Assembly (NCBI RefSeq): GCF_053078305.1
Contig: NZ_CP166879.1
DNA: 64,000 nt
Direction: 5' to 3' (one strand)
Shown: positions 26,150-64,000 of the stretch, piece by piece
Numbering within the stretch: position 1 is the stretch's first letter
Layout: every line of letters begins with the position of its first letter
The notes under the pieces: generated by a model
The model's input: only the letters and a program-made list of their open reading frames with translations
What the model was told of the DNA's origin: nothing
Database searches by the model: none
Program-made: the position numbers and the translations under genes

Positions 26150-27064
26150 ATGTCAGCCAAAGTATGGGTTTTAGGGGATGCGGTAGTAGATCTCTTGCCA
26201 GAATCAGACGGGCGCCTACTGCCTTGTCCTGGCGGCGCGCCAGCTAACGTTGCGGTGGGAATCGCCAGATTAGGCGGAATAAGTGGGTTTATAGGTCGGG
26301 TCGGTGATGATCCTTTTGGTGCGTTAATGCAAAGAACGCTGCTAACTGAGGGAGTCGATATCACGTATCTGAAGCAAGATGAATGGCACCGGACATCCAC
26401 GGTGCTTGTCGATCTGAACGATCAAGGGGAACGTTCATTTACGTTTATGGTCCGCCCCAGTGCCGATCTTTTTTTAGAGACGACAGACTTGCCCTGCTGG
26501 CGACATGGCGAATGGTTACATCTCTGTTCAATTGCGTTGTCTGCCGAGCCTTCGCGTACCAGCGCATTTACTGCGATGACTGCGATCCGGCATGCCGGAG
26601 GTTTTGTCAGCTTCGATCCCAATATTCGTGAAGATCTATGGCAAGACGAGCATTTGCTCCGCTTGTGTTTGCGGCAGGCGCTACAACTGGCGGATGTCGT
26701 CAAGCTCTCGGAAGAAGAATGGCGACTTATCAGTGGAAAAACACAGAACGATCGGAATATATGCGCCCTGGCAAAAGAGTATGAGATCGCCATGCTGTTG
26801 GTGACTAAAGGTGCAGAAGGGGTGGTGGTCTGTTATCGAGGACAAGTTCACCATTTTGCTGGAATGTCTGTGAATTGTGTCGATAGCACGGGGGCGGGAG
26901 ATGCGTTCGTTGCCGGGTTACTCACAGGTCTGTCCTCTACGGGATTATCTACAGATGAGAGAGGAATGCGACGAATTATCGATCTCGCTCAACGTTGCGG
27001 AGCGCTTGCAGTAACGGCGAAAGGGGCAATGACAGCGCTGCCATGTCGACAAGAACTGGAATAG
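26150..27064 (+). CDS. cscK: Fructokinase (PfkB family)
   Basis: 304-aa ORF with ribokinase-like GAGD motif. Confidence 0.85.
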   Translation: MSAKVWVLGDAVVDLLPESDGRLLPCPGGAPANVAVGIARLGGISGFIGRVGDDPFGALMQRTLLTEGVDITYLKQDEWHRTSTVLVDLNDQGERSFTFMVRPSADLFLETTDLPCWRHGEWLHLCSIALSAEPSRTSAFTAMTAIRHAGGFVSFDPNIREDLWQDEHLLRLCLRQALQLADVVKLSEEEWRLISGKTQNDRNICALAKEYEIAMLLVTKGAEGVVVCYRGQVHHFAGMSVNCVDSTGAGDAFVAGLLTGLSSTGLSTDERGMRRIIDLAQRCGALAVTAKGAMTALPCRQELE

Positions 27065-27135
27065 TGAGAAGTAAACGGCGAAGTCGCTCTTATCTCTAAA
27101 TAGGACGTGAATTTTTTAACGACAGGCAGGTAATT

Positions 27136-28383
27136 ATGGCACTGAATATCCCATTCAGAAATGCGTACTATCGTTTTGCATCCAGTTACTCATTTCTCTT
27201 TTTTATTTCCTGGTCGCTGTGGTGGTCGTTATACGCTATTTGGCTGAAAGGACATCTAGGGTTGACAGGGACGGAATTAGGTACACTTTATTCGGTCAAC
27301 CAGTTTACCAGCATTCTATTTATGATGTTCTACGGCATCGTTCAGGATAAACTCGGTCTGAAGAAACCGCTCATCTGGTGTATGAGTTTTATCCTGATCT
27401 TGACCGGACCGTTTATGATTTACGTTTATGAACCGTTACTGCAAAGCAATTTTTCTGTAGGTTTAATTCTGGGGGCGCTCTTTTTTGGCCTGGGGTATCT
27501 GGCGGGATGCGGTTTGCTTGACAGCTTCACCGAAAAAATGGCGCGAAATTTTCATTTCGAATATGGAACAGCGCGCGCCTGGGGATCTTTTGGCTATGCT
27601 ATTGGCGCGTTCTTTGCCGGCATATTTTTTAGTATCAGTCCCCATATTAACTTCTGGTTGGTCTCGCTATTTGGCGCTGTATTTATGATGATCAACATGT
27701 GTTTTAAAGATAAGGATCACCAGTGCGTAGCGGCGGATGCGGGAGGGGTAAAAAAAGAGGATTTTATCGCAGTTTTCAAGGATCGAAACTTCTGGGTTTT
27801 CGTCATATTTATTGTTGGGACGTGGTCTTTCTATAACATTTTTGATCAACAACTTTTTCCTGTCTTTTATGCAGGTTTATTCGAATCACACGATGTAGGA
27901 ACGCGCCTGTATGGTTATCTCAACTCATTCCAGGTGGTACTCGAAGCGCTGTGCATGGCGATTATTCCGTTCTTTGTGAATCGGGTAGGGCCAAAAAATG
28001 CATTACTTATCGGTGTTGTGATTATGGCGTTGCGTATCCTTTCCTGCGCGCTGTTCGTTAACCCCTGGATTATTTCATTAGTGAAGCTGTTACATGCCAT
28101 TGAGGTTCCACTTTATGTCATATCCGTCTTCAAATACAGCGTGGCAAACTTTGATAAGCGCCTGTCGTCGACGATCTTTCTGATTGGTTTTCAAATTGCC
28201 AGTTCGCTTGGGATTGTGCTGCTTTCAACGCCGACTGGGATACTCTTTGACCACGCAGGCTACCAGACAGTTTTCTTCGCAATTTCGGGTATTGTCTGCC
28301 TGATGTTGCTATTTGGCATTTTCTTCCTGAGTAAAAAACGCGAGCAAATAGTTATGGAAACGCCTGTACCTTCAGCAATATAG
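27136..28383 (+). CDS. cscB: Sucrose:H+ symporter (MFS, LacY-like)
   Basis: 415-aa 12-TM ORF. Confidence 0.85.
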   Translation: MALNIPFRNAYYRFASSYSFLFFISWSLWWSLYAIWLKGHLGLTGTELGTLYSVNQFTSILFMMFYGIVQDKLGLKKPLIWCMSFILILTGPFMIYVYEPLLQSNFSVGLILGALFFGLGYLAGCGLLDSFTEKMARNFHFEYGTARAWGSFGYAIGAFFAGIFFSISPHINFWLVSLFGAVFMMINMCFKDKDHQCVAADAGGVKKEDFIAVFKDRNFWVFVIFIVGTWSFYNIFDQQLFPVFYAGLFESHDVGTRLYGYLNSFQVVLEALCMAIIPFFVNRVGPKNALLIGVVIMALRILSCALFVNPWIISLVKLLHAIEVPLYVISVFKYSVANFDKRLSSTIFLIGFQIASSLGIVLLSTPTGILFDHAGYQTVFFAISGIVCLMLLFGIFFLSKKREQIVMETPVPSAI

Positions 28384-28825
28384 ACGTAAACTTTTTCCGG
28401 TTGTTGTCGATATCTCCATATCCTTCAACCGGAAAATAATAATACTAAAATGCTTAGCCCTGCTAATAATCGCCTAATCCAAACACCTCATTCATGTTCT
28501 GGTACAGTCGCTCAAATGTACTCCGGATACACGGTTCGCTGATTTCCAGGACATTGTCGTCATTCAGCGACCTGTCGCGTGTATCACGGGCCTGCGAATT
28601 CATCAAGGAATGCATTGCGGAGTGAAGTATCGAGTCACGCCATATTTCGCTATCAGGATTCTGTGTGATGGTTACATCGCCCGGCCCAAGGCTGTTTAGT
28701 CATCAGCGCTTTCTGACAGTGCTGAGATTTCAACCTGTTGCAGTAAAAATGAGTAGATATAGGGCAAGTGTGCTGCCAAACCCATCGTTTACGGGATGAA
28801 GGTAGATTTGGTTTGAAGGGTATCT

Positions 28826-28842
28826 GGTGTCCCCTGCAGACA
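28826..28842 (-). repeat. att-core-like fragment matching the 3' end of tRNA-Arg (argW)
   Basis: ctggtgtcccctgcaga is the reverse complement of the recalled argW 3' end CTGCAGGGGACACCA; no tRNA body follows. Confidence 0.4.
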
Positions 28843-28912
28843 TCTACTTGAAGCGGCAGGGGATTGATTGGAATGGTGTTTTTTAGATGTGAAAAATATT
28901 TTACCCGCTATT

Positions 28913-29113
28913 TTACCCATTGGCGCGGCTTAAGAGCTTATTTTTGAATTCACAATGGTCACGATATAACCATCTTGCTCGCCCGTGGATAACTTTGGCT
29001 TTAGGTAGGTCTCCGGACTTAATCCGGTCATAGATGAAGGTCTTACCGAAGCCAGTATCAGCCATGATGAATTTCAAATCAACCAGTGAATCAGGTTGTA
29101 GTTCGTGTTGCAT
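28913..29113 (-). CDS. Excisionase-like / AlpA-family DNA-binding protein
   Basis: 66-aa ORF with AlpA/Xis-like pattern (DTGFGKTFIYDRIKSGDLP); adjacent to att remnant. Confidence 0.5.
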   Translation of the reverse strand: MQHELQPDSLVDLKFIMADTGFGKTFIYDRIKSGDLPKAKVIHGRARWLYRDHCEFKNKLLSRANG

Positions 29114-29217
29114 GAGTGCTATCTCCGAATAGGGAATCGAACCTGCAAATCAGGCAATAAAAAAACCGCATTGATGCGGCGATGGTAGGTCTGGATATCT
29201 TGATAAATGAAAATGCC

Positions 29218-29496
29218 TCATCGAGTGTGAGGCGGTGTGATTCCATGGTTACCTCTGCTTTTTGAACGCATGTCACGTAACTTCTTAATGTGTTCTGCCG
29301 TTTCGATCTCTTCTGCTATCCGATCTGCATCAGCTTTATTCACAGGTTCAAAGTCATGATTAAAGCGGAACATGCTGGCGATACATGTTCTGCCTTTTCG
29401 GATGTAGTGAACTTTGTTGTGGTTAGAACGCAGGATTTTGCAGGGAGTGCCGTGGTGGTCGACGTACCAGGTGTTAGGCAAAATGATTCTGAACAT
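29218..29496 (-). CDS. Hypothetical phage protein
   Basis: 92-aa ORF in early-left region. Confidence 0.35.
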   Translation of the reverse strand: MFRIILPNTWYVDHHGTPCKILRSNHNKVHYIRKGRTCIASMFRFNHDFEPVNKADADRIAEEIETAEHIKKLRDMRSKSRGNHGITPPHTR

Positions 29497-29543
29497 TTTT
29501 ACACCTCAGTTGGACGATGTTGAAATTTGCTCCTTTGAGGTCA

Positions 29544-29762
29544 TCACAATCCCCATTGTTTGTTCTTAAGTTCGATCTCCTCCTGGCAACTTGCACAAGT
29601 CCGACAACCCTGAACGGCTAGGCGTCTTCGCTTATCTATGGGATCGCCACACTCACAACAATGAGTGGCAGATATAGCCTGGTGGTTCAGGCGGCGCATT
29701 TTTATTGCTGTGTTGCGCTGTAATTCTTCAATTTCTGATGCTGAATCAATGATGTCTGCCAT
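29544..29762 (-). CDS. TraR/DksA-family C4 zinc-finger protein
   Basis: CxxC...CxxC motif (CCECGDPI...CRTCASC) in 72-aa ORF. Confidence 0.55.
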   Translation of the reverse strand: MADIIDSASEIEELQRNTAIKMRRLNHQAISATHCCECGDPIDKRRRLAVQGCRTCASCQEEIELKNKQWGL

Positions 29763-29860
29763 CTTTCATTAATCCCTGAATTGTTGGTTAATACGCTTGA
29801 GGGTGAATGCGAATAATAAAAAAGGAGCCTGTAGCTCCATGAAGATTTTGCTTTTCATGT

Positions 29861-30142
29861 TCACCGTTCCTTAAAGACGCCGTTTAACATACCGATTGCC
29901 AGACTTAAGTGAGTCGGTGTGAATCCCATCAGCGTTACCGTTTCGCGGTGCTTCTTCAGTACGCTACGGCAAATGTCATCGACGTTTTTATCCGGAAACT
30001 GCTGTCTGGCTTTTTTGATTTCAGAATTAGCCTGACGGGCAATACTGCGAAGGGCGTTTTCTTGCTGAGGTGTCATTGAACAAGTCCCATGTCGGCAAGC
30101 ATAAGCACACAGAATATGAAGCCCGCTGCCAGAAAAATGCAT
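29861..30142 (-). CDS. Hypothetical phage protein
   Basis: 93-aa ORF. Confidence 0.3.
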   Translation of the reverse strand: MHFSGSGLHILCAYACRHGTCSMTPQQENALRSIARQANSEIKKARQQFPDKNVDDICRSVLKKHRETVTLMGFTPTHLSLAIGMLNGVFKER

Positions 30143-30152
30143 TCAGTGGTTG

Positions 30153-30344
30153 TCATACCTGGTCTCTCTCATCTGCTTCTGCTTTCGCCACCATCATTTC
30201 CAGCTTTTGTGAAAGGGATGTGGCTAACGTATGAAATTCTTCGTCTGTTTCTGCTGGTATTGGCACAAACCTGACTCCAATTTGAGCAAGGCTATGTGCC
30301 ATCTCAATGCTCGTTCTTAACTCAACAGGAGATGCTTTGTGCAT
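30153..30344 (-). CDS. Hypothetical phage protein
   Basis: 63-aa ORF. Confidence 0.25.
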   Translation of the reverse strand: MHKASPVELRTSIEMAHSLAQIGVRFVPIPAETDEEFHTLATSLSQKLEMMVAKAEADERDQV

Positions 30345-30495
30345 ACAGCCCCTCGTTTATTATTTATCTCCTCAGCCAGCCGCTGGGCTTTCAGTGGATT
30401 TTGGATAACAGAAAGGCCGGGAAATACCCAGCCTCGCTTTGTAACGGAGTAGACGAAAGTGATCGCACCTACCCGGATATTATCGTGAGGATGCT

Positions 30496-31176
30496 TCATC
30501 GCCATTGCTCCCCAAATACAAAACCAATTTCAGCCAGTGCCTCGTCCATTTTTTCGATGAACTCCGGCACCATCTCGTCAAAACTCGCCATGTAATTTTC
30601 ATCCCGCTCAACCACGACATAATGCAGGCCTTCACGCTTCATGCGTGGGTCATAGTTGGCAAAGTACCAGGCATCTTTTCGCGTCACCCACATGCTGTAC
30701 TGCACCTGGGCCATGTAAGCCGACTTTATGGCCTCGAAACCACCGAGCCGGAACTTCATGAAATCCCGGGAGGTAAACGGGCATTTCAGCTCAAGACCAT
30801 TGCCGTCACTGCATAAACCATCGGGAGAGCAGGCGGTGCGCATACTTTCGTCGCGATAGATGATCGGGGATTCAGTAACATTCACGCCGGAAGTGAATTC
30901 AAACAGGGTTCTGGCGTCGTTCTCGTACTGTTTTCCCCAGGCCAGCGCCTTAGCATTAACTTCCGGAGCCACACCGGTGCAAACCTCAGCCAGCAGGGTG
31001 TGGAAGTAGGACATTTTCATGTCAGGCCATTTCTTTCCGGAGCGGGGTTTTGCTATCACGTTGTGAACTTCTGAAGCTGTGATGACGCCGAGCCGTAATT
31101 TGTGCCACGCATCATCCCCCTGCTCGACAGCTCTCACGTCGATCCCGGTACGCTGCAGGATAATGTCTGGTGTCAT
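30496..31176 (-). CDS. exo: Lambda exonuclease (Red alpha)
   Basis: 226-aa protein matching lambda Exo along its length ([26 protein letters not shown]...). Confidence 0.9.
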
Positions 31177-31958
31177 GCTGCCACCTTCTGCTCAGTGGCT
31201 TTTTGTTTCAGGAATCCAAGAGCTTTCACTGCTTCGGCCTGTGTCAGTTCTGACGATGCACGAATGTCGCGGCGAAATATCTGGGAACAGAGCGGCAATA
31301 AGTCGTCATCCCATGTTTTATCCAGGGCGATCAGCAGAGTGTTAATCTCCTGCATGGTTTCATCGTTAACCGGAGTGATGTCGCGTTCCGGCTGGCGTTC
31401 TGCAGTGTATGCGGTATTTTCGACAATGCGCTCGGCTTCATCCTTGTCATAGATACCAGCAAATCCGAAGGCCAGGCGGGCACACTGAATCATGGCTTTA
31501 TGCCGTAACATCCGTTTGGGATGCGACTGCCACGGGCCGGTGATTTCTCTGCCTTCGCGGGTTTTGAATGGTTCGCGTCGGCATTCATCCATCCACTCGG
31601 TAACGCAGATCGGATGATTACGGTCTTTGCGGTAAATCCGGCATGTACAGGATTCATTGTCCTGCTCAAAGTCCATGCCATCAAACTGCTGGTTTTCATT
31701 GATGATGCGGGACCAGCCATCAACGCCCACCACCGGAACGATGCCGTTCTGCTTATCAGGGAAGGCGTAAATTTCTTTCGTCCACGGATTAAGGCCGTAC
31801 TGGTTGGCGACGATCAACAATGCGATGAACTGCGCATCGCTGGCATCGCCTTTAAATGCTGTCTGGCGAAGAGTGGTGATCAGTTCCTGTGGGTCGACAG
31901 AATCCATGCCGACACGTTCAGCCAGCTTCCCTGCCAGCGTTGCGAGTGCTGTACTCAT
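31173..31958 (-). CDS. bet: Lambda Bet single-strand annealing protein (Red beta)
   Basis: 261-aa protein matching lambda Bet ([36 protein letters not shown]...). Confidence 0.9.
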
Positions 31959-31963
31959 CCGTT

Positions 31964-32260
31964 TTATACCTCTGAATCAATATCAACCTGGTGGTGAGCA
32001 ATGGTTTCAACCATGTACCGGATGTGTTCTGCCATGCGCTCCTGAAACTCAACATCGTCATCAAACGCACGGGTAATGGCTTTTTTGCTGGCCCCGTGGC
32101 GTTGCAAATGATCGATGCATAGCGATTCAAACAGGTGCTGGGGCAGGCCTTTTTCCATGTCGTCTGCCAGTTCTGCCTCTTTCTCTTCACGGGCGATCTG
32201 CTGGTAGTGACGCGCCCAGCTCTGAGCCTCAAGACGATCCTGAATGTAATAAGCGTTCAT
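31964..32260 (-). CDS. gam: Gam (RecBCD inhibitor), short form
   Basis: 98-aa protein matching lambda GamS ([21 protein letters not shown]...). Confidence 0.85.
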
Positions 32261-32335
32261 GGCTGAACTCCTGAAAATGGCTGTGAAAAAATCGCCCGCG
32301 GAATGCCAGGCTGATTCGGAAAACAGGAAAGGGGA

Positions 32336-32626
32336 TTAGTGATTCAGACCGTTGCCGCGTCCGTCGAGAAAAACTTCCACGAGCAAGTCACGGGTATAAG
32401 TGCGCTCAATGCCGCGATGCAGATAAAGTCGTCCGCGTAAATTAGCTGATGCAGTCCAGGTACCATCTTTGCGTTTGACCAGCATTCCTGGCATGACCGC
32501 ACCGCGATTAACGGTCTGCGTTCCGTAATGTTGATGAACCATAAAAACTCCTGCCCGTAAGCTGGGCTGCTGAACATATAAAGACTTCTGCGCGTATTCA
32601 GGCGGTGGATGGCCGCCGGTTGTCAT
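32336..32626 (-). CDS. Hypothetical early-left protein (kil/cIII region)
   Basis: 96-aa ORF downstream of putative OL/pL; function not assignable. Confidence 0.3.
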   Translation of the reverse strand: MTTGGHPPPEYAQKSLYVQQPSLRAGVFMVHQHYGTQTVNRGAVMPGMLVKRKDGTWTASANLRGRLYLHRGIERTYTRDLLVEVFLDGRGNGLNH

Positions 32627-32825
32627 AACTAAGCCGCCTCGTTGAAGCGACTAAGGTATGAAATGTTGAGTTGATTTCAGCTGGTCACACCGACGTTCAC
32701 GCGTCCGTTTCATCCCTCGCACTCCCCGAAGCCTGCTGAAATTCAAGCTGCGGATCTAAGCGGTCATCGCAACGGTGAATCAGGTGGTTGCCGTATCGTT
32801 GTGTTGTTGCGATATGGTGATAATA

Positions 32826-32863
32826 GCTATTGCTATTGGTAATATCAATACTTATTGCTATTA
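32826..32863. promoter_or_regulatory. Putative OL operator region
   Basis: Motifs GCTATTGCTAT and ATTGCTATTA, each also present between cI and cro. Confidence 0.4.
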
Positions 32864-32986
32864 GTTGATGTGTTTTGATATTAAATGTTTGATAGCAAAA
32901 AGAATTAATTTTGTGACTTGCATCGCATAGCGATAACTGAAGTGAGGTCGTGGTGGTTTTTTGAACGGTGTGTGATGAGGGGAGGG

Positions 32987-33011
32987 CAAAAGAAAACCCG
33001 GCAAGGCCGGG
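32987..33011 (-). terminator. Rho-independent terminator ending the cI-proximal operon
   Basis: cccggc-aag-gccggg hairpin; on minus strand followed by TTTTCTTTT; about 40 bp past the stop of the 33047 gene. Confidence 0.5.
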
Positions 33012-33046
33012 TTGTTGATAAGGTATGTCACATACAATAATAAATT

Positions 33047-33874
33047 TTAGACTTGAGGAAGTATTTTTTTTGCAAAATCAATAGTTTCTTTGTGGCTGGA
33101 TGCAGGTATATGATTTATTTTCTTAGCATCCATAGTTCTCTTTATGATGTCAATAACTTTGCTTTGGCCTGAGTTTGGTGATTCAGGGGTTTCAATTGTG
33201 AATAGAATGTCATCAAGTGAAAGCAGGTTTTCTTCTGCTGCTCGAGTTATTCTCATCACCCAAGTATCACTATGCTCCATCATTTTTCCGGGTTCAGTTT
33301 GAGTGAATGCCAGAGGTTTGATGGCACATTGGATCCTGTCGTGCTTCTTGGCGACCAATGGCATTGAGAACTTTGCGAAATACCCATCAATAGTTGCTTG
33401 TTTGAAGACGTTCTTCAATCCATCTATTCTATCGATACTGCGTTTTAGCTCTCTAGCTAGGACATCTTCACGGCGCTCTTTTGTGTAGTCAGCGTGGTTT
33501 ACATATTTATTGTAAATGCGAGCCAACTCTTCTTTCGGGTTTTCACTGAGGATAACTCTCGTAGAGCTGAACTGAAAAATTGATTCTTTTTTGTTTGTAA
33601 AATATCTGAAGAATTGTGCAAGTTGTTGATGTCCAACAATCTGGGTAGCATGCATTTTTGCGAACTGGAGTTCTCTTTGTATTGAGTCTTTTGCTACGGG
33701 AAAAATGCAATCATCATGGAAGAAATTCTTTACACGAGAGTCATTTCGCTTTGTGAGATGGAAGTCAAAGTAATTTTCTTTTGGCGCGCACAGAAGTACG
33801 CCTATGTTTGCGAACTCTTCAGTCTCCGCATAAGGCGCATAGCGAACGATGCTATATAGGCATGGAGTTGTCAT
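33047..33874 (-). CDS. Hypothetical protein, possibly DUF3037-like; second gene of rexAB-position operon
   Basis: ORF 33047-33889; likely ATG at 33874 overlapping upstream stop (ATGA); N-terminal YSIVRYAPYAETEEFANIGVLLC reminiscent of DUF3037 (from memory, needs HMM). Confidence 0.5.
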   Translation of the reverse strand: MTTPCLYSIVRYAPYAETEEFANIGVLLCAPKENYFDFHLTKRNDSRVKNFFHDDCIFPVAKDSIQRELQFAKMHATQIVGHQQLAQFFRYFTNKKESIFQFSSTRVILSENPKEELARIYNKYVNHADYTKERREDVLARELKRSIDRIDGLKNVFKQATIDGYFAKFSMPLVAKKHDRIQCAIKPLAFTQTEPGKMMEHSDTWVMRITRAAEENLLSLDDILFTIETPESPNSGQSKVIDIIKRTMDAKKINHIPASSHKETIDFAKKILPQV

Positions 33875-34620
33875 TCTATTGCGCTCCAAAATTCATCACA
33901 ATCACCTTTGCCTAGCGTAGTGCAGACAAAAGGTAAAAACTCATCATCTACTATCCACTCCTCTGGAATTTCGTCAAGGATAGCAGGAAGTTTGTGTAAA
34001 CTGTCAACGACCCTCTGGCGGTACTCTACGCGATCCACTAAATCATACTGCCATTTGCGGTTACCCGGGCCGTACACGTGTACAGAAAAATCTTCAGGCC
34101 CAGCATTCTGATCAAATGATAGATTATGGTCAATCAGATAATACTTATCGTTACTGATGTCATAAAGGATATTGACGTTTCCGCCTTTATCAGTAAGCGT
34201 TCTGTCTGCATTTAATATCCACTTATCAAAAGCATAGATTAATTTTTGCTGTTCGACTGGGATGATCATTTCGTTTCTTGACTGCGTAAACGTTAACGCG
34301 ATTGCACCGTCTATGAACAATGAAGCAAAAGCATACCCTGTACAAATTTGTTGCTGCAGATCAGGTGTGTACTCTACAAGTTCCTCTGGTACAAATACGA
34401 TTTTAAAGTCAGGTAAAGGAAGGCCGATATCATTAGCCAGGCACGCCGAAATGAACTCAGCTAAGAGATTTTTCGGGGGCATTGATGGTTTAGATTTCAA
34501 AACATACAACTGCCCATCATCACATTTGCAAAGAAATGGCTGAGTGGAACCTTCATTGATGCGACGTATTACTTCAACGACATTAGGTATTGCACTACTG
34601 CTGCTTGCTTCGCGCTCCAT
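33871..34620 (-). CDS. Hypothetical kinase-like protein (HipA / PI3-4 kinase-like motifs); first gene of rexAB-position operon
   Basis: ORF 33871-34623; motifs ILNADRTLTDKGGNVNIL and YYLIDHNLSFD resemble catalytic and metal-binding loops of HipA-type kinases; tentative. Confidence 0.5.
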   Translation of the reverse strand: MEREASSSSAIPNVVEVIRRINEGSTQPFLCKCDDGQLYVLKSKPSMPPKNLLAEFISACLANDIGLPLPDFKIVFVPEELVEYTPDLQQQICTGYAFASLFIDGAIALTFTQSRNEMIIPVEQQKLIYAFDKWILNADRTLTDKGGNVNILYDISNDKYYLIDHNLSFDQNAGPEDFSVHVYGPGNRKWQYDLVDRVEYRQRVVDSLHKLPAILDEIPEEWIVDDEFLPFVCTTLGKGDCDEFWSAIE

Positions 34621-34758
34621 CACTAACCCTTACGTGATTCAAGTCTTCCACCTCATTACTCCGCATCTCAAAGAGCGGTTCTACACAGCGTGTTTAAAGA
34701 AAAACAACAGGCTTCATTGCTGTAGCTGTTTTTCCGTAATGTCACTTTTGGTCTCGTT

Positions 34759-35451
34759 TTAACCATGCTTCCTGTACGTCTGAGGCATGCTCCCGATGAC
34801 CTTACCGAAGATGAATACACGGTTCATCTCGTCTTTCTCGATTGGGTCCCATGGTGAATAGCTCTTGTTGTCAGAGATAACCAGCAGCTTATCCTTCATC
34901 ATTTGAAGGCGCTTAACATGGGCCGTATCGTCGTAAAGGAACGCATAAATCCCGTCGCCGTCGAAAGATTTGATGGCGATATCGACGAACAGCAAGTCAC
35001 CCGGTTCGATCGTTCCTGACATGCTGTCACCGCGTACGTTAATGATGCGGATATTTTCTGCCTTCCTGCCATCGAACATGTGACGAGCATCGTCAAACGA
35101 GTACTCAACCGAGCGTAGGACTTCTACAAACTCACGGTTGATGACACCCGGCCCAGCACTGACTTCTATATCAAGAACGTCAATCTTGAAGTATTTGGAA
35201 TGGTTGACAGTAGGCTTCCCTGATTGTTGACCGTCATTTCTCATCGGGCCTATGCCTGATGAGAGCCACTCTGTTCGAACACCCAATGCATTAGCTATTT
35301 CAACAATTTTTGTTGAGCCGCGCGCGTTGCCGCTTGTCAGTCTCCAGATTGTGGGTTGAGCTACGCCAGACGCCTTTGCAAGAGCGCCTTGAGACATTCC
35401 AGATTGTTCCATCGCTAGGTTTAAGCGATCAGCAAGAGTTTCTTTTTTCAT
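34759..35451 (-). CDS. CI-type prophage repressor (HTH plus S24 LexA-like peptidase)
   Basis: ORF 34759-35487; N-terminal HTH, C-terminal S24 domain with GDSM; likely leaderless ATG at 35451. Confidence 0.8.
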   Translation of the reverse strand: MKKETLADRLNLAMEQSGMSQGALAKASGVAQPTIWRLTSGNARGSTKIVEIANALGVRTEWLSSGIGPMRNDGQQSGKPTVNHSKYFKIDVLDIEVSAGPGVINREFVEVLRSVEYSFDDARHMFDGRKAENIRIINVRGDSMSGTIEPGDLLFVDIAIKSFDGDGIYAFLYDDTAHVKRLQMMKDKLLVISDNKSYSPWDPIEKDEMNRVFIFGKVIGSMPQTYRKHG

Positions 35452-54971: not shown

Positions 54972-56377
54972 AACTGGCACCGAACGTAAAACGATTACCG
55001 AAAGATAAATACACCGAAGCGGTTATTTTTGCGGGTATTGATGCTCACTCATTCGCAGAGCATTACATCATTGCACAGGCCAAAAAAGCAGGCGATCCAG
55101 TCCCTCCCGTTTATCTGGGGCGTTATCAGTTAAGCGAACTGGATAACCTCCAGATTGTTGATGATGGGCGATACAGGGCGACGGTGATACGCGCCGGAAA
55201 TATTGAAGAGCCGCAGCTGTTAACCATCGCCACGAAACTGGCGAGCGCCGGAGTCCAGGAGGCGCGGCTACTTTCTGAAAATTTCGAATTGCTGGAGGAA
55301 TGGAGCGACCAGCTTCCACGGCTTAGGGAGGCATGGGAACGCGGGGAAAGCCTGGTCATGAAAAAAATTCCCCAGCGAAAAACCACGCTACCGATGAGCG
55401 TTGGATCTACCGGATACGACACACAGCTTGATTACGTGGTAAAGGGGATTATTCCGGCATCGTCGCTTTGCAGCATATACGGGGCGAGCGGTTCCTATAA
55501 ATCATTCCTTGCCGGATCGTGGGCGTGTCACGTTTCCACGGGCCGCCAGTGGGGAGGCCGCAGGGTGGCGCATGGCGCTGTTCTCTATGTGGTTGGTGAA
55601 GGCGGTATCGGCGTTCCGCGTCGTGTAAAAGCCTGGGAGGTTGTGCACGGTGAGCAGGTGAAAAATCTGTATCTGGTAAACCGTCCCATCTTTCCGGCTG
55701 TCCCGCTTGATGTTGATGAACTGGTTATTGCTGCCAGTCAGGTGGAGAGGGAAACGGGTAAACCTGTTCGCATGATTATTCTGGACACGCTGGCGCGTTG
55801 CTTTGGCGGCAATGATGAAAATGACTCCCGCGACATGGGGGCATTTATCCGTGGTTGTGACGAGCTTAAACGGCGCACAGGGGCTACGGTGCTGGTGGTT
55901 CACCATTCCGGCAAGGATGAAACAAAGGGGGCGCGTGGTTCCAGTGCATTTCGTGCATCACTGGACGCTGAATACCGGATACGCAGGGAGGACGCAGGAA
56001 GCGAAGCGCTGGTTATCTCATGCACCAAAATGAAGGACGCGGAGGAACTCAAAGAGGCTGCCTATGATTTGCGGGTGGTGGAGCTTTTTACCGACGCTGA
56101 CGGGGAGTTAATTACGTCGCTGGTGGTGGTGGATAAGCCGCGCCCTCCCGTTGAACTGGAGCGCATCGAGGAGGCAGGCAACAAGACGGAAAACCATACC
56201 GCGCTATGGGGGTGCATCCGTTCACGCACACAGAACGGCGACAAGTGCACGATCCCGCTGTTACGTGACGATATGAAAAAGCTGGGGTATGACACAAAAC
56301 ACCTTAAACGATGGTTAGCCAAACTGGAAAAAGACGACGTGATCTACATTGACGGTGATGATGTAGGACCACTGTAA
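54968..56377 (+). CDS. Replication ATPase (RecA/DnaB-like P-loop, putative initiator/helicase)
   Basis: 469-aa ORF with Walker A GASGSYKS and Walker B IILDTLAR; followed directly by iterons. Confidence 0.65.
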   Translation: MKLAPNVKRLPKDKYTEAVIFAGIDAHSFAEHYIIAQAKKAGDPVPPVYLGRYQLSELDNLQIVDDGRYRATVIRAGNIEEPQLLTIATKLASAGVQEARLLSENFELLEEWSDQLPRLREAWERGESLVMKKIPQRKTTLPMSVGSTGYDTQLDYVVKGIIPASSLCSIYGASGSYKSFLAGSWACHVSTGRQWGGRRVAHGAVLYVVGEGGIGVPRRVKAWEVVHGEQVKNLYLVNRPIFPAVPLDVDELVIAASQVERETGKPVRMIILDTLARCFGGNDENDSRDMGAFIRGCDELKRRTGATVLVVHHSGKDETKGARGSSAFRASLDAEYRIRREDAGSEALVISCTKMKDAEELKEAAYDLRVVELFTDADGELITSLVVVDKPRPPVELERIEEAGNKTENHTALWGCIRSRTQNGDKCTIPLLRDDMKKLGYDTKHLKRWLAKLEKDDVIYIDGDDVGPL

Positions 56378-56580
56378 AAAGTGGGCATTAAAAGTGGGAA
56401 AGGTGGGCGATTTAACGTAATTTTAACAAAATCACCCACTTTCCCACGTGTATATATCCCAAAAAGTGGGCACTAAAAAAATACCTATGAAACAAGATGA
56501 TATAAATCCCAAACTTCCCACGTTGGACGAAGTGGGAAAACGTAAAAAGTGGGCGAAAAAAGTGGGTAGAGGTGGGCAAA
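56378..56580. repeat. Iteron-type replication origin of the satellite
   Basis: At least eight copies of AAGTGGG(C/A)A in both orientations within 200 bp. Confidence 0.6.
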
Positions 56581-56831
56581 TGACTCAAAAACACAGAGAC
56601 AGAACAGAGCCAAAATATAAAGCGTTAGACATGACAGAGCACGCTTTAAAGGTGGCAATCAGGGTAATAGACCGCCACACGCGGGAAGGATACGCGAAGG
56701 AACATCCCGACCTGATAAGCGCATTCATGACCACAGCGGCGGCAAACTTTGCCACGCTGACAGAACGGGAGATAGCCGAAGCGGAACAGGTAACAACCAT
56801 CAACGTTAAAACCGGAGAGGTGGAATCATGA
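56580..56831 (+). CDS. Hypothetical protein
   Basis: ORF 56448-56831 overlaps the iterons; likely start ATG 56580. Confidence 0.35.
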   Translation: MTQKHRDRTEPKYKALDMTEHALKVAIRVIDRHTREGYAKEHPDLISAFMTTAAANFATLTEREIAEAEQVTTINVKTGEVES

Positions 56832-57238
56832 CAGCACAGATAGCCGCTTACGGGCGGCTGGTGGACGACCCGCAGGTAAAACAAACCAGCAAGGGCACAC
56901 CGATGACGCTGGCGCGTATGGCGGTATCTCTGCCATGCAGCCAGGCACAGGACGGGCAGGCTACGTTATGGCTATCAGTGATGGCATTTGGTAAGCAGGC
57001 CGACTTCCTGGCTAAACATCAAAAAGGCGATGTTGCCAGCGTATCCGGCACGATGCAGGTAAGCCAGTGGACCAGACAGAACGGGGAAACGCGGCAGGGT
57101 TATCAGGTTATTGCAGACAGTGTAATCAGTGCCCGTGCTGCCCGTCCTGGCGGGAGCAGACGTACAACCACAGGCACACAGGGTAATCAGCCACCAGCGG
57201 GAGGCGATGACCCTTACGGTGACGGTATTCCGTTCTGA
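56828..57238 (+). CDS. ssb: Single-stranded DNA-binding protein
   Basis: 136-aa OB-fold-like protein with Gly/Pro-rich tail ending DDPYGDGIPF. Confidence 0.7.
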   Translation: MTAQIAAYGRLVDDPQVKQTSKGTPMTLARMAVSLPCSQAQDGQATLWLSVMAFGKQADFLAKHQKGDVASVSGTMQVSQWTRQNGETRQGYQVIADSVISARAARPGGSRRTTTGTQGNQPPAGGDDPYGDGIPF

Positions 57239-57248
57239 GGGGGTGACG

Positions 57249-57521
57249 ATGGTACATGACCGCATAGCGGAGGAACTCGAGGCAAAAGGCTTTTACCGGA
57301 GGGCGGCGGCGCGATGGGGTGAAGTTATGCAGCTGGTGGAGACAGACAAGGAACGGCATCAGGTTACGATGCGACGGCTGGAATGTTCCAGGAAGGCACA
57401 GAGGCCACCGGAGCCGCCGGATAACTTCGGAGACCTGAAAAAAGCAGTAGATCGCACTTATGCCGAAATGGGTATGGATGGTGTAAGCGATGAAATATGG
57501 CGTAATTACCCAGACAGCTAA
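57249..57521 (+). CDS. Hypothetical protein, possibly PerC-like activator
   Basis: 90-aa ORF (ATG 57249); N-terminal AEELEAKGFYRRAAARW resembles PerC family from memory. Confidence 0.35.
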   Translation: MVHDRIAEELEAKGFYRRAAARWGEVMQLVETDKERHQVTMRRLECSRKAQRPPEPPDNFGDLKKAVDRTYAEMGMDGVSDEIWRNYPDS

Positions 57522-57527
57522 TCAACA

Positions 57528-57549
57528 GCCGGAGAAATCCGGCTTTTTT
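57528..57549 (+). terminator. Rho-independent terminator
   Basis: gccgg-agaaat-ccggc hairpin plus TTTTTT; identical hairpin at 59802. Confidence 0.6.
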
Positions 57550-57562
57550 GTACCCAAAAAAA

Positions 57563-57598
57563 GCCCGATAAGTACAGGAGGCATCTTATCGGGCTTTT
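57563..57598 (+). terminator. Second tandem terminator hairpin
   Basis: gcccgataag ... cttatcgggc stem followed by TTTT. Confidence 0.5.
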
Positions 57599-57760
57599 GC
57601 ATATGAGGTTTTTTTGGTGCACTGACACACATGATCGGGGTAATCATTTCATAATTTGCAACACAACTCAACATCATTGCACAAAATGCAATCCTGATTA
57701 TAATCAGAGCTGGATGAACATCCAGTTCTGATTTTTTAAGTCAAAGAGGAATTTCTTACT

Positions 57761-57967
57761 ATGGCTGAAGAGAAAAAAGGCGGTGTTTCGGTGTACATAA
57801 GCCCCGAAATCGTGGAGGTGCTCAAGCAGCGCCACAAAAAAAACTATGAGGCTGGCGTAGCGGCTGGACTGGATCCGCTGATGACGCCGGAGCCGTCGAT
57901 AGGTTCACTTGTGCGCTCTTATTTACTTGCGGCGCTTGGGATGCATAAAAATTATGGTGGTGAATAA
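57761..57967 (+). CDS. Hypothetical protein
   Basis: 68-aa ORF with RBS agagga, immediately upstream of capsid-like gene. Confidence 0.4.
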   Translation: MAEEKKGGVSVYISPEIVEVLKQRHKKNYEAGVAAGLDPLMTPEPSIGSLVRSYLLAALGMHKNYGGE

Positions 57968-59022
57968 TGACAGTAAAAGCAATGGCACTTACAACTAACC
58001 AGCTTTTCGCGTACCTGAATCGCGGGGATATTGCAGAATTTAAATTCAGTCCGCTGTTTACCACGCTGTTTTTCCCGAACGTGGCGACCTTCAACACCCA
58101 GAACATCATGCTGGACACCCTGGACATTGAAGAGGTTACGATGTCAGCGTTCTGTTCGCCTATGGTGGGTAGTCAGGTCCAGCGCGATAAAGGGTACGAA
58201 ACCAGCACGATTAAACCAGGCTACATGAAACCCAAACACGAAATCGATCCAACAAAAACCATCATGCGCATGGCTGGAGAAGATCCGGCACAGCTTAACG
58301 ACCCTACCTACCGCCGTATGCGCCTGATTACTGGCAACATGCGCCGCCAGATAAACGCCATTAAAGCGCGCGTGGAATGGCTGGCGGTGAATGCGATAAC
58401 GACCGGAAAAAACATCATTGAGGGCGAAGGCATAGAACGCTATGAAATCGACTGGAAAATACCGGAAAACTGCATCATAGAGCAGGCCAAGGGTAAAAAA
58501 TGGTCCGAGCATGATAAAGATATTTACGATCCAATCTATGACATCGAACTATACGCAGATCAGGCAGGTTGCCCCGCCAACGTCATGATTATGGGCGCTG
58601 AGGTATGGCGCACGTTACGCAGCTTTAAAAAATTCCGCGAACTGTACGATCTTTCCCGTGGTTCAGAATCCGCCGCAGAACTGGCCTGTAAAAACCTGGG
58701 TGAAGTAGTGAGCTTTAAAGGCTATCTGGGCGATATTGCCCTTATCGTCTATTCCGGCAAATACACTGACAGCGACGGTACCGAAAAATATTTCCTTGAG
58801 CCTGATTTGCTGGTCCTGGGTAACACCAACAATAAAGGGCTGGTGGCCTATGGTGCGATTATGGATCAGGAAGCGGTAAGAACGGGCGCAACGCAAAACA
58901 TGTTCTACCCGAAAAACTGGATTGAAGACGGCGATCCGGCGATTGAGTACGTTCAGACGCACAGCGCACCGCAGCCGGTACCGGCAGATATTCGCAAATT
59001 TGTTACCGTCAAAATTGCTTAA
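57967..59022 (+). CDS. Major capsid protein homologue (lambda gpE-like)
   Basis: 351-aa protein sharing conserved blocks with lambda gpE (FxFxPLF, GYxKPKHE, DPxYRRxR, YDPxxDIExYA, VSxKGxxGDxAxxVYSG, YPKNW, GDPA, SAP); similarity judged from recalled gpE sequence. Confidence 0.65.
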   Translation: MTVKAMALTTNQLFAYLNRGDIAEFKFSPLFTTLFFPNVATFNTQNIMLDTLDIEEVTMSAFCSPMVGSQVQRDKGYETSTIKPGYMKPKHEIDPTKTIMRMAGEDPAQLNDPTYRRMRLITGNMRRQINAIKARVEWLAVNAITTGKNIIEGEGIERYEIDWKIPENCIIEQAKGKKWSEHDKDIYDPIYDIELYADQAGCPANVMIMGAEVWRTLRSFKKFRELYDLSRGSESAAELACKNLGEVVSFKGYLGDIALIVYSGKYTDSDGTEKYFLEPDLLVLGNTNNKGLVAYGAIMDQEAVRTGATQNMFYPKNWIEDGDPAIEYVQTHSAPQPVPADIRKFVTVKIA

Positions 59023-59033
59023 CGGGGGATTCT

Positions 59034-59369
59034 ATGGACACTCCATACATTGAGTTATTTGCAGGCAGTCAGCAGGTATCCACGACGCTGGTACATTTTG
59101 CCGCTGATGCTGGCGTTATTCAGGAATTTACCCCGCTGATGCTGGCGGACAATGGCGAGTTTAAGCCGTGGGATGGTCAGGAATCTGGCAAGGCTGTTTA
59201 TCTGACCTCGTACCCCGTGGACACGTCAAAGCAGAAATCAGCACAGTGTTACAAGACGGGGATATTTAATATCGCCGCCGTAAACTGGCCTGAGAGCGCC
59301 GACACTGACGCGAAAAAATGCGCCGCCTTTGCGGGTTCTGGCGTATCCGTTCAGCCGCTGGCGCGATAA
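59034..59369 (+). CDS. Head decoration protein homologue (lambda gpD-like)
   Basis: 111-aa protein aligning with gpD (TPLML, WDG, YKTGxF, WPE, AFAG), also with the bona fide D N-terminus at 63772. Confidence 0.6.
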   Translation: MDTPYIELFAGSQQVSTTLVHFAADAGVIQEFTPLMLADNGEFKPWDGQESGKAVYLTSYPVDTSKQKSAQCYKTGIFNIAAVNWPESADTDAKKCAAFAGSGVSVQPLAR

Positions 59370-59381
59370 GCAGGGGAAACG

Positions 59382-59795
59382 ATGGCAACGAATGAAAGCA
59401 TCATGGCGCTACCGCTGGCGAGTAAATTTAAAGCAGAAGCGCGGGCAATGGCTGACAGAGGTTTATCAACCTACGAGGCCGTATATCAACTCAACAAACT
59501 GGAAGAGCAGGACAAGCCGCGCGCTGATGCGATTATGGCGCTTCATGAACATAACGACTATCAGCCGCTGTTACGTGCAATGGCAAACGTGCCATGTATT
59601 AGCGTCGATAATGCTCGTGAAATCCTGAACATGACCATAGAGCAGGAGCGCCCAAAGGTTGCGCCGGAGCTTACCGCAGCCTTTGAAAACTTTATGGACA
59701 TGCACAGCCCGAAAGCCGTATCACCCGGCATGGCATACGACGGCAGAAACCAGGGCGATGAAGGCGACGTCGATCGCATACTGAAAACCATCTGA
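59382..59795 (+). CDS. Hypothetical protein
   Basis: 137-aa ORF between decoration-like gene and terminator. Confidence 0.4.
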   Translation: MATNESIMALPLASKFKAEARAMADRGLSTYEAVYQLNKLEEQDKPRADAIMALHEHNDYQPLLRAMANVPCISVDNAREILNMTIEQERPKVAPELTAAFENFMDMHSPKAVSPGMAYDGRNQGDEGDVDRILKTI

Positions 59796-59801
59796 CATAA
59801 G

Positions 59802-59824
59802 GCCGGAGAAATCCGGCTTTTTTT
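59802..59824 (+). terminator. Rho-independent terminator (duplicate of 57528 hairpin)
   Basis: gccgg-agaaat-ccggc plus TTTTTTT. Confidence 0.6.
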
Positions 59825-59856
59825 ACGGGTCCTTTCCGGCATATGGACCCGTTACG

Positions 59857-59868
59857 GGGCGGCGACCT
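59857..59868 (+). other. Satellite cos-like site (cosN GGGCGGCGACCT) in direct orientation
   Basis: About 60 bp (59825-59890) nearly identical to prophage cos 46155-46220, diverging in the cosB-proximal part. Confidence 0.7.
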
Positions 59869-60001
59869 CGCGGTTTTTCGCTATTTATGAGCTTTTTTCG
59901 GGTGCTGGTGGTGGTTTTGTTTTTCGCTCTATCTCTATGAATAAAAAGGGAAAGATAAAACCAATACACCAACCTGAAACATTACTTAAGTGGGGATATT
60001 G

Positions 60002-60544
60002 ATGAAATCGCACCTGATGAACAAAAAAAACATGGCGCAAAGCTGCCGTGTAAGTGCGACAGCGTTCGACAAGTGGGGAGTGACTCCCGTTGAACGTAAA
60101 GGACGCGAGGCTTTTTACGATGTTGCCAGCGTGATAGACAATCGGGTAAGCAATGCAATTAACCAGGTTACAAACGACAAAGGCGAGATTGATGATGATG
60201 AACTCTTACGAGTCAGGATCAGATTACTGACCGCCCAGGCTGAGGCGCAGGAACTTAAAAACGAGCGCGATCGCGGTGACGTAATTGATACTGAGTTTTG
60301 CCTGTACGCGCTTTCAAAGCTGGCGAGTCAGATTTCTTCAATCATGGACAGTTTGCCGCTTACCATGCAAAGGCGCTTCCCGCAGATTACTCCCGCTATG
60401 CTGGATGGGCTTAAAAGGGAAGTGGTTAAAGCCTGTAATGCCAGTGCCACAGTTGCCGACAACCTCCCGAAGATACTGGCTGATTACCTGATGGAAACTA
60501 CCGGAGACGTACCGGAGAAGTTGCTACAGAAGAAAGGCGAGTAA
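60002..60544 (+). CDS. Nu1-like small terminase / packaging-redirection protein
   Basis: ORF 59990-60544 (GTG); C-terminal region resembles lambda Nu1 (LTxAQAxAQELKNxRD, LSxxAxxIxSIxDxxPLxxQRRFP); N-terminal DNA-binding region differs. Confidence 0.6.
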   Translation: MKSHLMNKKNMAQSCRVSATAFDKWGVTPVERKGREAFYDVASVIDNRVSNAINQVTNDKGEIDDDELLRVRIRLLTAQAEAQELKNERDRGDVIDTEFCLYALSKLASQISSIMDSLPLTMQRRFPQITPAMLDGLKREVVKACNASATVADNLPKILADYLMETTGDVPEKLLQKKGE

Positions 60545-60724
60545 CAGACGCGCAATTATTGAACAAAAGTAAGGCCCGACATGAAATCACCCAAAAATGC
60601 CTTTTTCATGCGTTTGTATGTCTGACCTTTTACGGTTTCGATATTATAAAAAACAAATAGTTACGCTCGAGAGGTACCGACACGCATTTTTCAGGAAAAT
60701 TTTCATAAACAGATAAAAACCGCG

Positions 60725-60736
60725 AGGTCGCCGCCC
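60725..60736 (-). other. Second cos-like site in inverted orientation
   Basis: aggtcgccgccc is the reverse complement of cosN; flanks on the minus strand resemble cosQ/cosB. Confidence 0.6.
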
Positions 60737-60800
60737 CGTAACGGGCCATAATTCCAGGAAGGACCCGACGACACCAGGCTATCAGAACGATGAGGGCACA

Positions 60801-61082
60801 ATGACAGAAGCCGAACTACTGGGATTAATCCGCTACGTTACCGGAATCAGCCAGCAGCATGACGAACAGGCCACGCAGCCGGACAGCGTGACCGCTGAAA
60901 ATTATGCGCGTGTTGTTGCTGAGGTGATGCGCCGTGATGGTATCCAGCTTAATGATGCAGATATGCGCGACATACGGATCCGCGTTCTTGAAATGCTGGC
61001 CTACCGTCGCCGCGTGCAGACGTACAGGGAAAAAGCAAAAATAACGTACCAGTGGAAGAAGCCGGAGCGATTACGGCGGTAA
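60801..61082 (+). CDS. Hypothetical protein
   Basis: 93-aa ORF. Confidence 0.35.
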   Translation: MTEAELLGLIRYVTGISQQHDEQATQPDSVTAENYARVVAEVMRRDGIQLNDADMRDIRIRVLEMLAYRRRVQTYREKAKITYQWKKPERLRR

Positions 61083-61127
61083 CTTGCTGATATTCCCGAT
61101 AACGCAAAATTGCGCTCTGTCCTAACC

Positions 61128-61259
61128 CGTTGATATTTTCGGGAACAGCCAACGGCTGAGGCCGGAACAACGATTATCTTTCAGATAGTCAGAGCTACGA
61201 AATTTTCGTAGTTTAATTACTCGCCAGTTTATCGTTAACTCGTTGATATTTTCGGTAAC
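61128..61259. repeat. Two 19-bp direct repeats flanking a perfect 17-bp palindrome
   Basis: cgttgatattttcgggaac at 61128-61146 and cgttgatattttcggtaac at 61241-61259; palindrome ctacgaaattttcgtag at 61195-61211. Confidence 0.8.
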
Positions 61260-61587
61260 CTCAATTTGAGGAGATCGGAAACATAACCCTTCACATTCTG
61301 AATGGTTATAATGACCACTCAGACCATCAAGGCAACCATAACGAACATCGTTACGGTTGGAGCTTTTACCCCACTGGGGGGAAGGTGCACATCTGGATCA
61401 TCATTACCGTGATCAAGGGTATGTAAAACCCACCAGCCTGATTAACTGTTAACCGGAAAAAAGCCAGGTAGCCAATCTCGATATGGGGATCCCCATATCG
61501 ACATTAACGCCCCCTAGAACTGCGCATATCTGCATATAAAAACATCCACCAGCTTTATGACGGATGCCGCTCATCTGATAAATAATC

Positions 61588-61610
61588 GTGTATTGCAATG
61601 TGTATTGCGA
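61588..61610. repeat. Two direct copies of GTGTATTGC(A/G)A at the right end (putative integrase arm sites)
   Basis: Same 11-mer as the three copies at 49980-50032, same orientation. Confidence 0.6.
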
Positions 61611-61688
61611 CTCCTTTAAACGATAGGTTTGAGCATTCGTAATGTACTGTTTTTAAATTTTATTTTTTCCTGTCTTTTCATAAAAGCC

Positions 61689-62462
61689 ATGTATGCCGCC
61701 ACCATTGAGAGTGAGCTGGATACGCAGTCAGCGATGGATTTTATTCTGGGCGCGAACAGTCAGGAGCAGCGGGAAAGGCTGACCGGCTGGATTGGTGAAA
61801 TTGCCGCGTATTACGCCGCAGCACCGGTCCGTCTGGGAGGCGCAAAAGTGCCGCACCTGATGCCGGGGGACTCACTGAACCTGCAGACGGCTCAGGACAC
61901 GGATAACGGCTACTCCGTGTTTGAGCAGTCACTGTTGCGGTATATCGCTGCCGGGCTGGGTGTCTCGTATGAGCAGCTTTCCCGGAATTACGCCCAGATG
62001 AGCTACTCCACGGCACGGGCCAGTGCGAACGAGTCGTGGGCGTACTTTATGGGGCGGCGAAAATTCGTCGCATCCCGTCAGGCGAGCCAGATGTTTCTGT
62101 GCTGGCTGGAAGAGGCCATCGCTCGCCGCGTGGTGACGTTACCTTCAAAAGCACGCTTCAGTTTTCAGGAAGCCCGAAGTGCCTGGGGGAACTGCGACTG
62201 GATAGGCTCCGGTCGTATGGCCATCGATGGTCTGAAAGAAGTACAGGAAGCGGTGATGCTGATAGAAGCCGGACTGAGTACCTACGAGAAAGAGTGCGCA
62301 AAACGCGGTGACGACTATCAGGAAATTTTTGCCCAGCAGGTCCGTGAAACGATGGAGCGCCGTGCAGCCGGTCTTAAACCGCCCGCCTGGGCGGCTGCGG
62401 CATTTGAATCCGGGCTGCGACAATCAACAGAGGAGGAGAAGAGTGACAGCAGAGCTGCGTAA
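61689..62462 (+). pseudogene. Portal protein B, 3' portion (codons 277-533)
   Basis: From MYAATIESELDTQSAMDFILG... to the stop; joins the 49850 half in frame to give 533 aa; ORF-track N-terminal extension is satellite sequence. Confidence 0.85.
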
Positions 62463-63762: not shown

Positions 63763-63771
63763 GGGATGTTT

Positions 63772-64000
63772 ATGACGAGCAAAGAAACCTTTACCCATTA
63801 CCAGCCGCAGGGCAACAGTGACCCGGCTCATACCGCAACCGCGCCCGGCGGATTGAGTGCGAAAGCGCCTGCAATGACCCCGCTGATGCTGGACACCTCC
63901 AGCCGTAAGCTGGTTGCGTGGGATGGCACCACCGACGGTGCTGCCGTTGGCATTCTTGCGGTTGCTGCTGACCAGACCAGCACCACGCTGACGTTCTACA
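63772..64000 (+). CDS. Head decoration protein D (5' partial at window end)
   Basis: [27 protein letters not shown]... matches lambda gpD. Confidence 0.85.

Follow-up and report, generated by a model that had tools for sequence, protein, structure and literature searches.

A KplE1-type attR with torI, and intS at the opposite end, in a lambda-like argW prophage beside csc sucrose genes

Several phages, and several prophages of Escherichia coli, use the tRNA-Arg(CCU) gene argW as their attachment site. For KplE1 (CPS-53) of strain K-12, a recombination module has been described in which the genes for the integrase and for the recombination directionality factor (RDF) are uncoupled, and HK620 and Sf6 share this module (PMC2951348, PMC3509656). 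Within the prophage, the integrase gene intS comes first and torI last, and TorI is 100% identical to the RDFs of HK620 and Sf6 (PMC3509656). The KplE1 core was published as a duplicated sequence of 16 nt, CTGCAGGGGACACCAT (PMC2951348, Panis et al.). Biochemical work on K-12 and HK620 substrates established that IntS, TorI and IHF are required for excision, the products of which are attP and attB (PMC2951348, PMC3509656); the 135-bp attR of the in vitro excision assays is bounded by the primer attR-IHF2, CTCTTAAGCCGCGCCAATGG (PMC3509656). The K-12 annotation reads argW(+), intS(+) and, at the other end, torI(+), the 15-nt pseudogene pawZ and dsdC. The csc sucrose genes replace dsdCX beside argW, which is a known recombination hotspot (PMC4366372).

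Like phage lambda, the prophage described here has a tyrosine recombinase with arm- and core-type sites, an RDF that is a small winged-helix protein, and recombination assisted by IHF; in both, xis follows the Red genes and closes the leftward early operon. In lambda, however, attP is separated from xis by int, which is transcribed together with xis, and both genes therefore remain at one prophage end, whereas the int gene of our prophage has a predicted autoregulated promoter in attL and lies at the opposite end from xis, as in KplE1 (PMC2951348). The lambda arrangement, with int directly downstream of xis at the same end, was not found at this locus.

The window, which is the whole 64,000-nt stretch analysed from contig NZ_CP166879.1 (assembly GCF_053078305.1), carries evgS, evgA, emrK, emrY, dsdA, a gene for a LacI-type regulator, cscA, cscK and cscB (27136-28383, plus strand), followed by phage genes. 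Its dsdA is 99.2% identical to that of K-12, which places the DNA in E. coli proper. We conclude that positions 28825-29113 almost certainly represent attR of a prophage that a KplE1/HK620/Sf6-type module has inserted in the 3' end of argW. This recombination module is complete and comprises attL with the intS promoter, intS, torI and attR.

The last gene of the prophage (28913-29113, minus strand) is transcribed towards attR and encodes 66 aa, all 66 of which are identical to K-12 TorI. The product matched PDB entry 1Z4H, 'Tor inhibition protein', over its full length (E 6.6e-43), and the gene is annotated as torI in all matching genomes. In Pfam the product gave no match to PF05930 (Phage_AlpA) at E≤0.01 and a sub-threshold one to HTH_17 (E 0.0079, 16.9 bits, cut-off 27), and none of the NCBIfam models matched TorI. 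Since no significant family match was obtained from Pfam or NCBIfam, the identification rests on identity to a characterised protein, by which 28913-29113 is torI, the predicted RDF (excisionase) of an IntS/TorI module. Upstream of torI, between it and a DUF4222 gene, a terminator-like hairpin with a T-run was found by consensus scan at 29165-29180 (minus strand); this hairpin is putative, as the scan gave two matches, a number within shuffle expectation. A promoter scan of 28350-29550 found no convincing torI promoter, and its lone promoter-like match, in the spacer, was below shuffle expectation.

The final 15 nt of K-12 argW, CTGCAGGGGACACCA, have a single exact match in the whole 64-kb window, at 28825-28839 on the minus strand. 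When up to 2 mismatches were allowed, this was still the sole match in the window, against a chance expectation of 0.09. The torI ORF lies 73 nt from this 15-mer. From torI as far as the core, the sequence has about 97% identity to the K-12 attR (torI-pawZ), a homology that stops exactly after ...ACACCA. These features, together with the switch of flanks described below, identify 28825-28839 as the attR core, that is, the crossover region and the counterpart of pawZ. With regard to the published 16-nt core, 15 of 16 nt are exact; the 16th base is G at this attR but T in K-12 and at the attL of the same prophage, and it is changed because the csc-type chromosomal flank differs. An earlier note on this DNA, made from the letters alone, had reported a match of 15-17 nt at 28826-28842 with an 'AlpA/Xis-like' gene 70 bp away. 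The match is real, although its start was off by one and its length is 15 rather than 17, as bases 28840-28841 are unlike argW. The neighbouring gene is indeed an excisionase gene at nearly that distance, and only the AlpA label was loose.

Alignment to K-12 torI-pawZ placed the P arm of attR, up to the attR-IHF2 primer site, at 28840-28936 (minus strand). It differs from the K-12 torI-pawZ spacer at 2 positions, and the primer sequence itself is present unaltered at 28917-28936. Two direct GGGTAAAAT repeats occur in the P arm in the minus-strand reading (28898-28906 and 28910-28918). Because the same motif overlaps the -10 box in attL, we read these repeats as candidate arm-type sites of IntS.

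The gap between the end of cscB (28383) and the core measures 441 bp (28384-28824). This sequence is chromosomal and single-copy, and it was found in 2623 of 5426 complete E. coli genomes. Strain 38 has an empty attachment site, in which cscB is followed by the 441-bp spacer, an intact argW, yfdC and mlaA. Because the spacer runs straight into intact argW in that strain, it is native chromosome, the B' flank that separates cscB from argW in csc+ E. coli, and neither prophage DNA nor a degraded integrase region. When the window was aligned with the strain 38 empty site and with attR and attL of K-12, this four-way comparison showed the classical flank exchange of attB, attL and attR at the core: on the left of the core the window equals the empty site and on the right the K-12 phage arm, and both argW-bearing sequences run on past the core into the tRNA body. 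The 15-mer at which the flanks are exchanged is therefore a genuine attR core (P-O-B').

A DUF4942 gene has left a relic in the spacer (28463-28615, minus strand; Pfam E 3e-6, profile positions 18-62 of 190); no NCBIfam model matched this relic, and many genomes have it annotated as a small CDS. It may perhaps be the final remnant of an older argW island that introduced the csc genes. We considered the spacer as the distal end of such an island, an idea with which the relic is in keeping. It has no bearing on the prophage integrase, because the spacer, fixed in about half of the E. coli genomes, belongs to the attB flank.

No integrase ORF or remnant was found between cscB and torI (28384-28912). 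A tblastn search of 28300-29000 with three IntS alleles, run also at word size 2 on this 700-bp stretch alone, gave best matches of only E~0.1, which we regard as noise. Among all ORFs of at least 40 aa in 28300-29000, Pfam detected the DUF4942 fragment only and no integrase. ARAGORN found no tRNA gene in the 64-kb window. The only integrase gene of the window, at 50051-51292, is carried by a satellite, and its product is 23% identical to IntS.

The far end of the prophage was sought outside the window. In the collection of 5426 complete E. coli genomes, coverage nowhere exceeded 75% for 27000-35000 or reached 80% for 52000-64000, and the matches had identities of about 97%; the far end can therefore not be read from that collection. 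Exactly one public contig, JPQG01000003.1 (assembly GCA_000736735.1), has the truncated portal ORF of 49021-49902 on record, and this contig is 99.995% identical to the window over 20.9 kb. The sole difference in this overlap is at window position 54207, within the satellite, where the window has G10 and the contig G9. Everything stated here about DNA beyond the window was read from this public draft contig, which was walked by means of rare protein alleles (a 93-aa satellite protein and tail proteins G and J). Its locus L036 begins at window position 63527 and is identical to the last 474 nt of the window.

The far end of the prophage lies about 22 kb past the end of the window. At window-equivalent positions 85532-86689 (L036 22006-23163, minus strand), intS encodes a 385-aa integrase that is identical to K-12 IntS at 382 of 385 residues; the three substitutions are S258N, A294S and E382G. 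A complete tRNA-Arg gene with the anticodon CCT, argW, follows at 86851-86925 (L036 23325-23399, minus strand). It repeats the core and lies on the same strand as intS, 161 bp from the intS start codon, which gives the module the 'STI' shape. The attL core, CTGCAGGGGACACCAT, was located in L036 by sequence match at window-equivalent 86851-86865. From attL to the ATG the region is nearly identical to that of K-12 and retains TTGACA, a spacing of 17 nt, TAAAAA and GGGTAAAA-type repeats. The intS promoter is thus predicted to be embedded in attL and to overlap IntS and TorI sites, whose roles are taken from the K-12 work (PMC2951348). From 28825 to about 86865, the prophage measures about 58.0 kb, which includes the satellite of 11.8 kb.

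The same layout was observed in all four prophages inspected, namely those of K-12 (cryptic, a 10-kb remnant), strain 1190 (P22-like), EF5-18-41 (P22-like) and NADC1036 (lambdoid). In each of them torI lies at one end, on the csc/dsd side, and intS with tRNA-Arg and yfdC at the other. The lambdoid early region of NADC1036 is 96-98% identical to that of the window, and the IntS proteins of K-12, 1190 and NADC1036 are 98-99% mutually identical across different phage bodies. The torI-attR arrangement was found in 1404 genomes and argW with intS in 1864, counts that are compatible with coupling of both ends without proving it for each genome.

The earlier note had reported no integrase between the att-like fragment, the xis-like gene and cscB, which our ORF, Pfam and tblastn searches confirm. 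It had described about 440 bp of non-coding or degraded sequence next to cscB, of which the length is right and the degradation is not, and it had taken the integrase to be either deleted or located at the other end. A deletion of the integrase together with att-xis sequence, leaving a prophage that is unable to excise, would agree with the missing gene between cscB and torI. It also has a precedent in strain 2012C-4227, where only an IntS N-terminal relic is retained beside argW: the csc-type spacer is followed by a frameshifted fragment of 206 bp (locus L018, 3926-4131) and then by argW. That site is the remainder of an almost wholly deleted IntS/TorI prophage, and decay at the argW site does occur. 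In our prophage, however, the P arm is contiguous and about 97% identical to the functional K-12 attR, with nothing missing from torI to the core, and the 441 bp that might have been the scar of a deletion are present at the empty site. Moreover, the same contig has at its other end a complete argW and, beside it, an intact gene for the cognate IntS, and this refutes the deletion reading unless JPQG01000003.1 is misassembled across the prophage. Loss of the integrase is therefore highly improbable; its seeming loss arose from the window boundary together with a lambda-centred expectation of int next to xis. Of the two possibilities in the earlier note, the far end is the one that stood.

It is also very unlikely that the prophage employs the integrase at 50051-51292 for its own integration and excision. 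This protein is an intact tyrosine recombinase with an arm-binding domain. Nevertheless, it is distant from IntS, the cognate IntS exists, and its gene is the first of an 11.8-kb satellite that has its own imperfect 13-bp repeats and, next in line, its own AlpA-family gene. Satellites with the same type of integrase were found at unrelated chromosomal sites, and this integrase is missing from the other argW prophages inspected. As for the possibility that the 15-mer is a chance match and no att site at all, the sequence is short and a search with 2 mismatches allowed gave at least one match in 9 of 100 shuffles, but we give this reading practically no credence, as the match is exact, lies at the same distance from torI as pawZ does in K-12, sits exactly at the switch from empty-site chromosome to phage arm and is repeated at the far end within the complete argW.

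Taken as an IntS/TorI module, the locus can be compared with its closest relatives. With KplE1 it shares an identical TorI, an attR P arm and core of about 97% identity, the argW 3'-end site, the orientation, the torI stop about 73 nt from the core, a 99% identical IntS beside argW and the conserved PintS/attL. KplE1 is, however, a 10-kb remnant with dsdC as its B' flank, whereas the present prophage is a lambda-like element of about 58 kb with Red, lambda-type head and tail genes and cargo, flanked by the csc-type spacer. In HK620 and Sf6 the DNA from xis/TorI to the P arm is 96-97% identical to that of the window, and their annotation places the attP core between int and the TorI homologue, the genes being all on one strand. 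HK620, Sf6 and CUS-3 are P22-like argW-integrating podoviruses with P22-like virion genes, unlike the window prophage, which carries lambda-like Nu1, A, W, B, C, D, E ... J, lom, stf and tfa. A shared module on different virion genes indicates a mosaic cassette on a different phage body.

We propose that in the free phage torI (xis), attP and intS would lie in this order and in the same orientation. Recombination of attP with the last ~15 nt of argW would then split torI from intS, since attP lies between xis and int: torI with the P arm would enter attR, beside the chromosome downstream of argW (the 441-bp spacer and the csc sucrose genes), and intS, with its own promoter within attL, would come to lie beside the regenerated argW at the far end. 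If the K-12 and HK620 experiments can be carried over, integration at the argW 3' end would be catalysed by IntS with IHF. In excision, TorI would bind cooperatively in attL and direct IntS to recombine attL with attR. Expression of intS would be repressed by both IntS and TorI, its promoter being inside attL. The prophage should be excision-competent, a prediction made from the K-12 work because the proteins are 99-100% identical.

The satellite within the prophage occupies 49843-61695 of the window and lies inside the lambda-type portal gene B, which is split into an N-part (49021-49902) and a C-part beginning at 61689. Besides its integrase gene (plus strand), it carries genes for AlpA, Bro-N, Ash, DUF4222, a RepA-like helicase, SSB and PerC, as well as for an E-like capsid protein, a D-like decoration protein and an Nu1-like small terminase. 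The satellite's own regulator does match PF05930. Imperfect 13-bp repeats, AAGGCGATTTATG and AAAGCCATGTATG, bound the element; the intact site reads AAGGCGATGTATG, and precise excision of the satellite would be expected to restore an in-frame portal gene. In exact-protein look-ups, a 257-aa portal C-fragment was on record in 529 blocks of the public collection, which indicates a common insertion site, and the prophage protease C in 4207 blocks; no record was found for either of the two forms tried of the 277-aa TTG-start C-fragment. The satellite is present in a second copy in the same genome (JPQG01000015.1, L024), just upstream of a lambda-like head protease gene, where it adjoins a second lambda-like head module. 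Another strain (CP018206.1, L007) has a lambda-like prophage whose major capsid gene E is interrupted by a related satellite. In general terms, the occurrence of satellites within prophages has been mentioned before (PMC10085698). One could imagine that virion production by the helper prophage is conditional on satellite excision, the satellite acting as a regulatory switch, but we consider this unlikely.

Other genes of the prophage were also noted. Past tail protein J, locus L036 encodes lom, a 1008-aa side tail fibre and tfa, and between the tail-fibre genes and intS (L036 17795-21633) it carries a cargo of a methyltransferase, a 494-aa alpha/beta hydrolase and an omptin-family outer-membrane protease. 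A gene pair for a DUF3037 protein and a HipA-family kinase lies in the early-left part of the prophage, at window positions 33047-34623 (minus strand). This pair is common to prophages at other loci, with 96-98% identity, and may be toxin-like or defence cargo. The tape-measure gene H is frameshifted in the draft contig (L036 5038-7598, window-equivalent ~68.6-71.1 kb), with residues 1-216 in one frame and 218-854 in another and no gene called; the frameshift could be a sequencing error or a real defect. Whether the prophage can make virions is doubtful, given its split portal gene and the frameshift of its tape-measure gene in the draft assembly.

The att/xis arrangement at this locus is a new instance of an already well-characterised module, with nothing novel in it, and has little import beyond correct annotation. 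A missing integrase beside xis is no evidence of a crippled argW prophage, because phages of the IntS/TorI type place the two genes at opposite ends. Beside the csc sucrose genes, the lambda-like prophage possesses a complete recombination module and, judged from its sequence, is probably excisable, which is of relevance wherever it is regarded as the helper of the satellite inside its portal gene.
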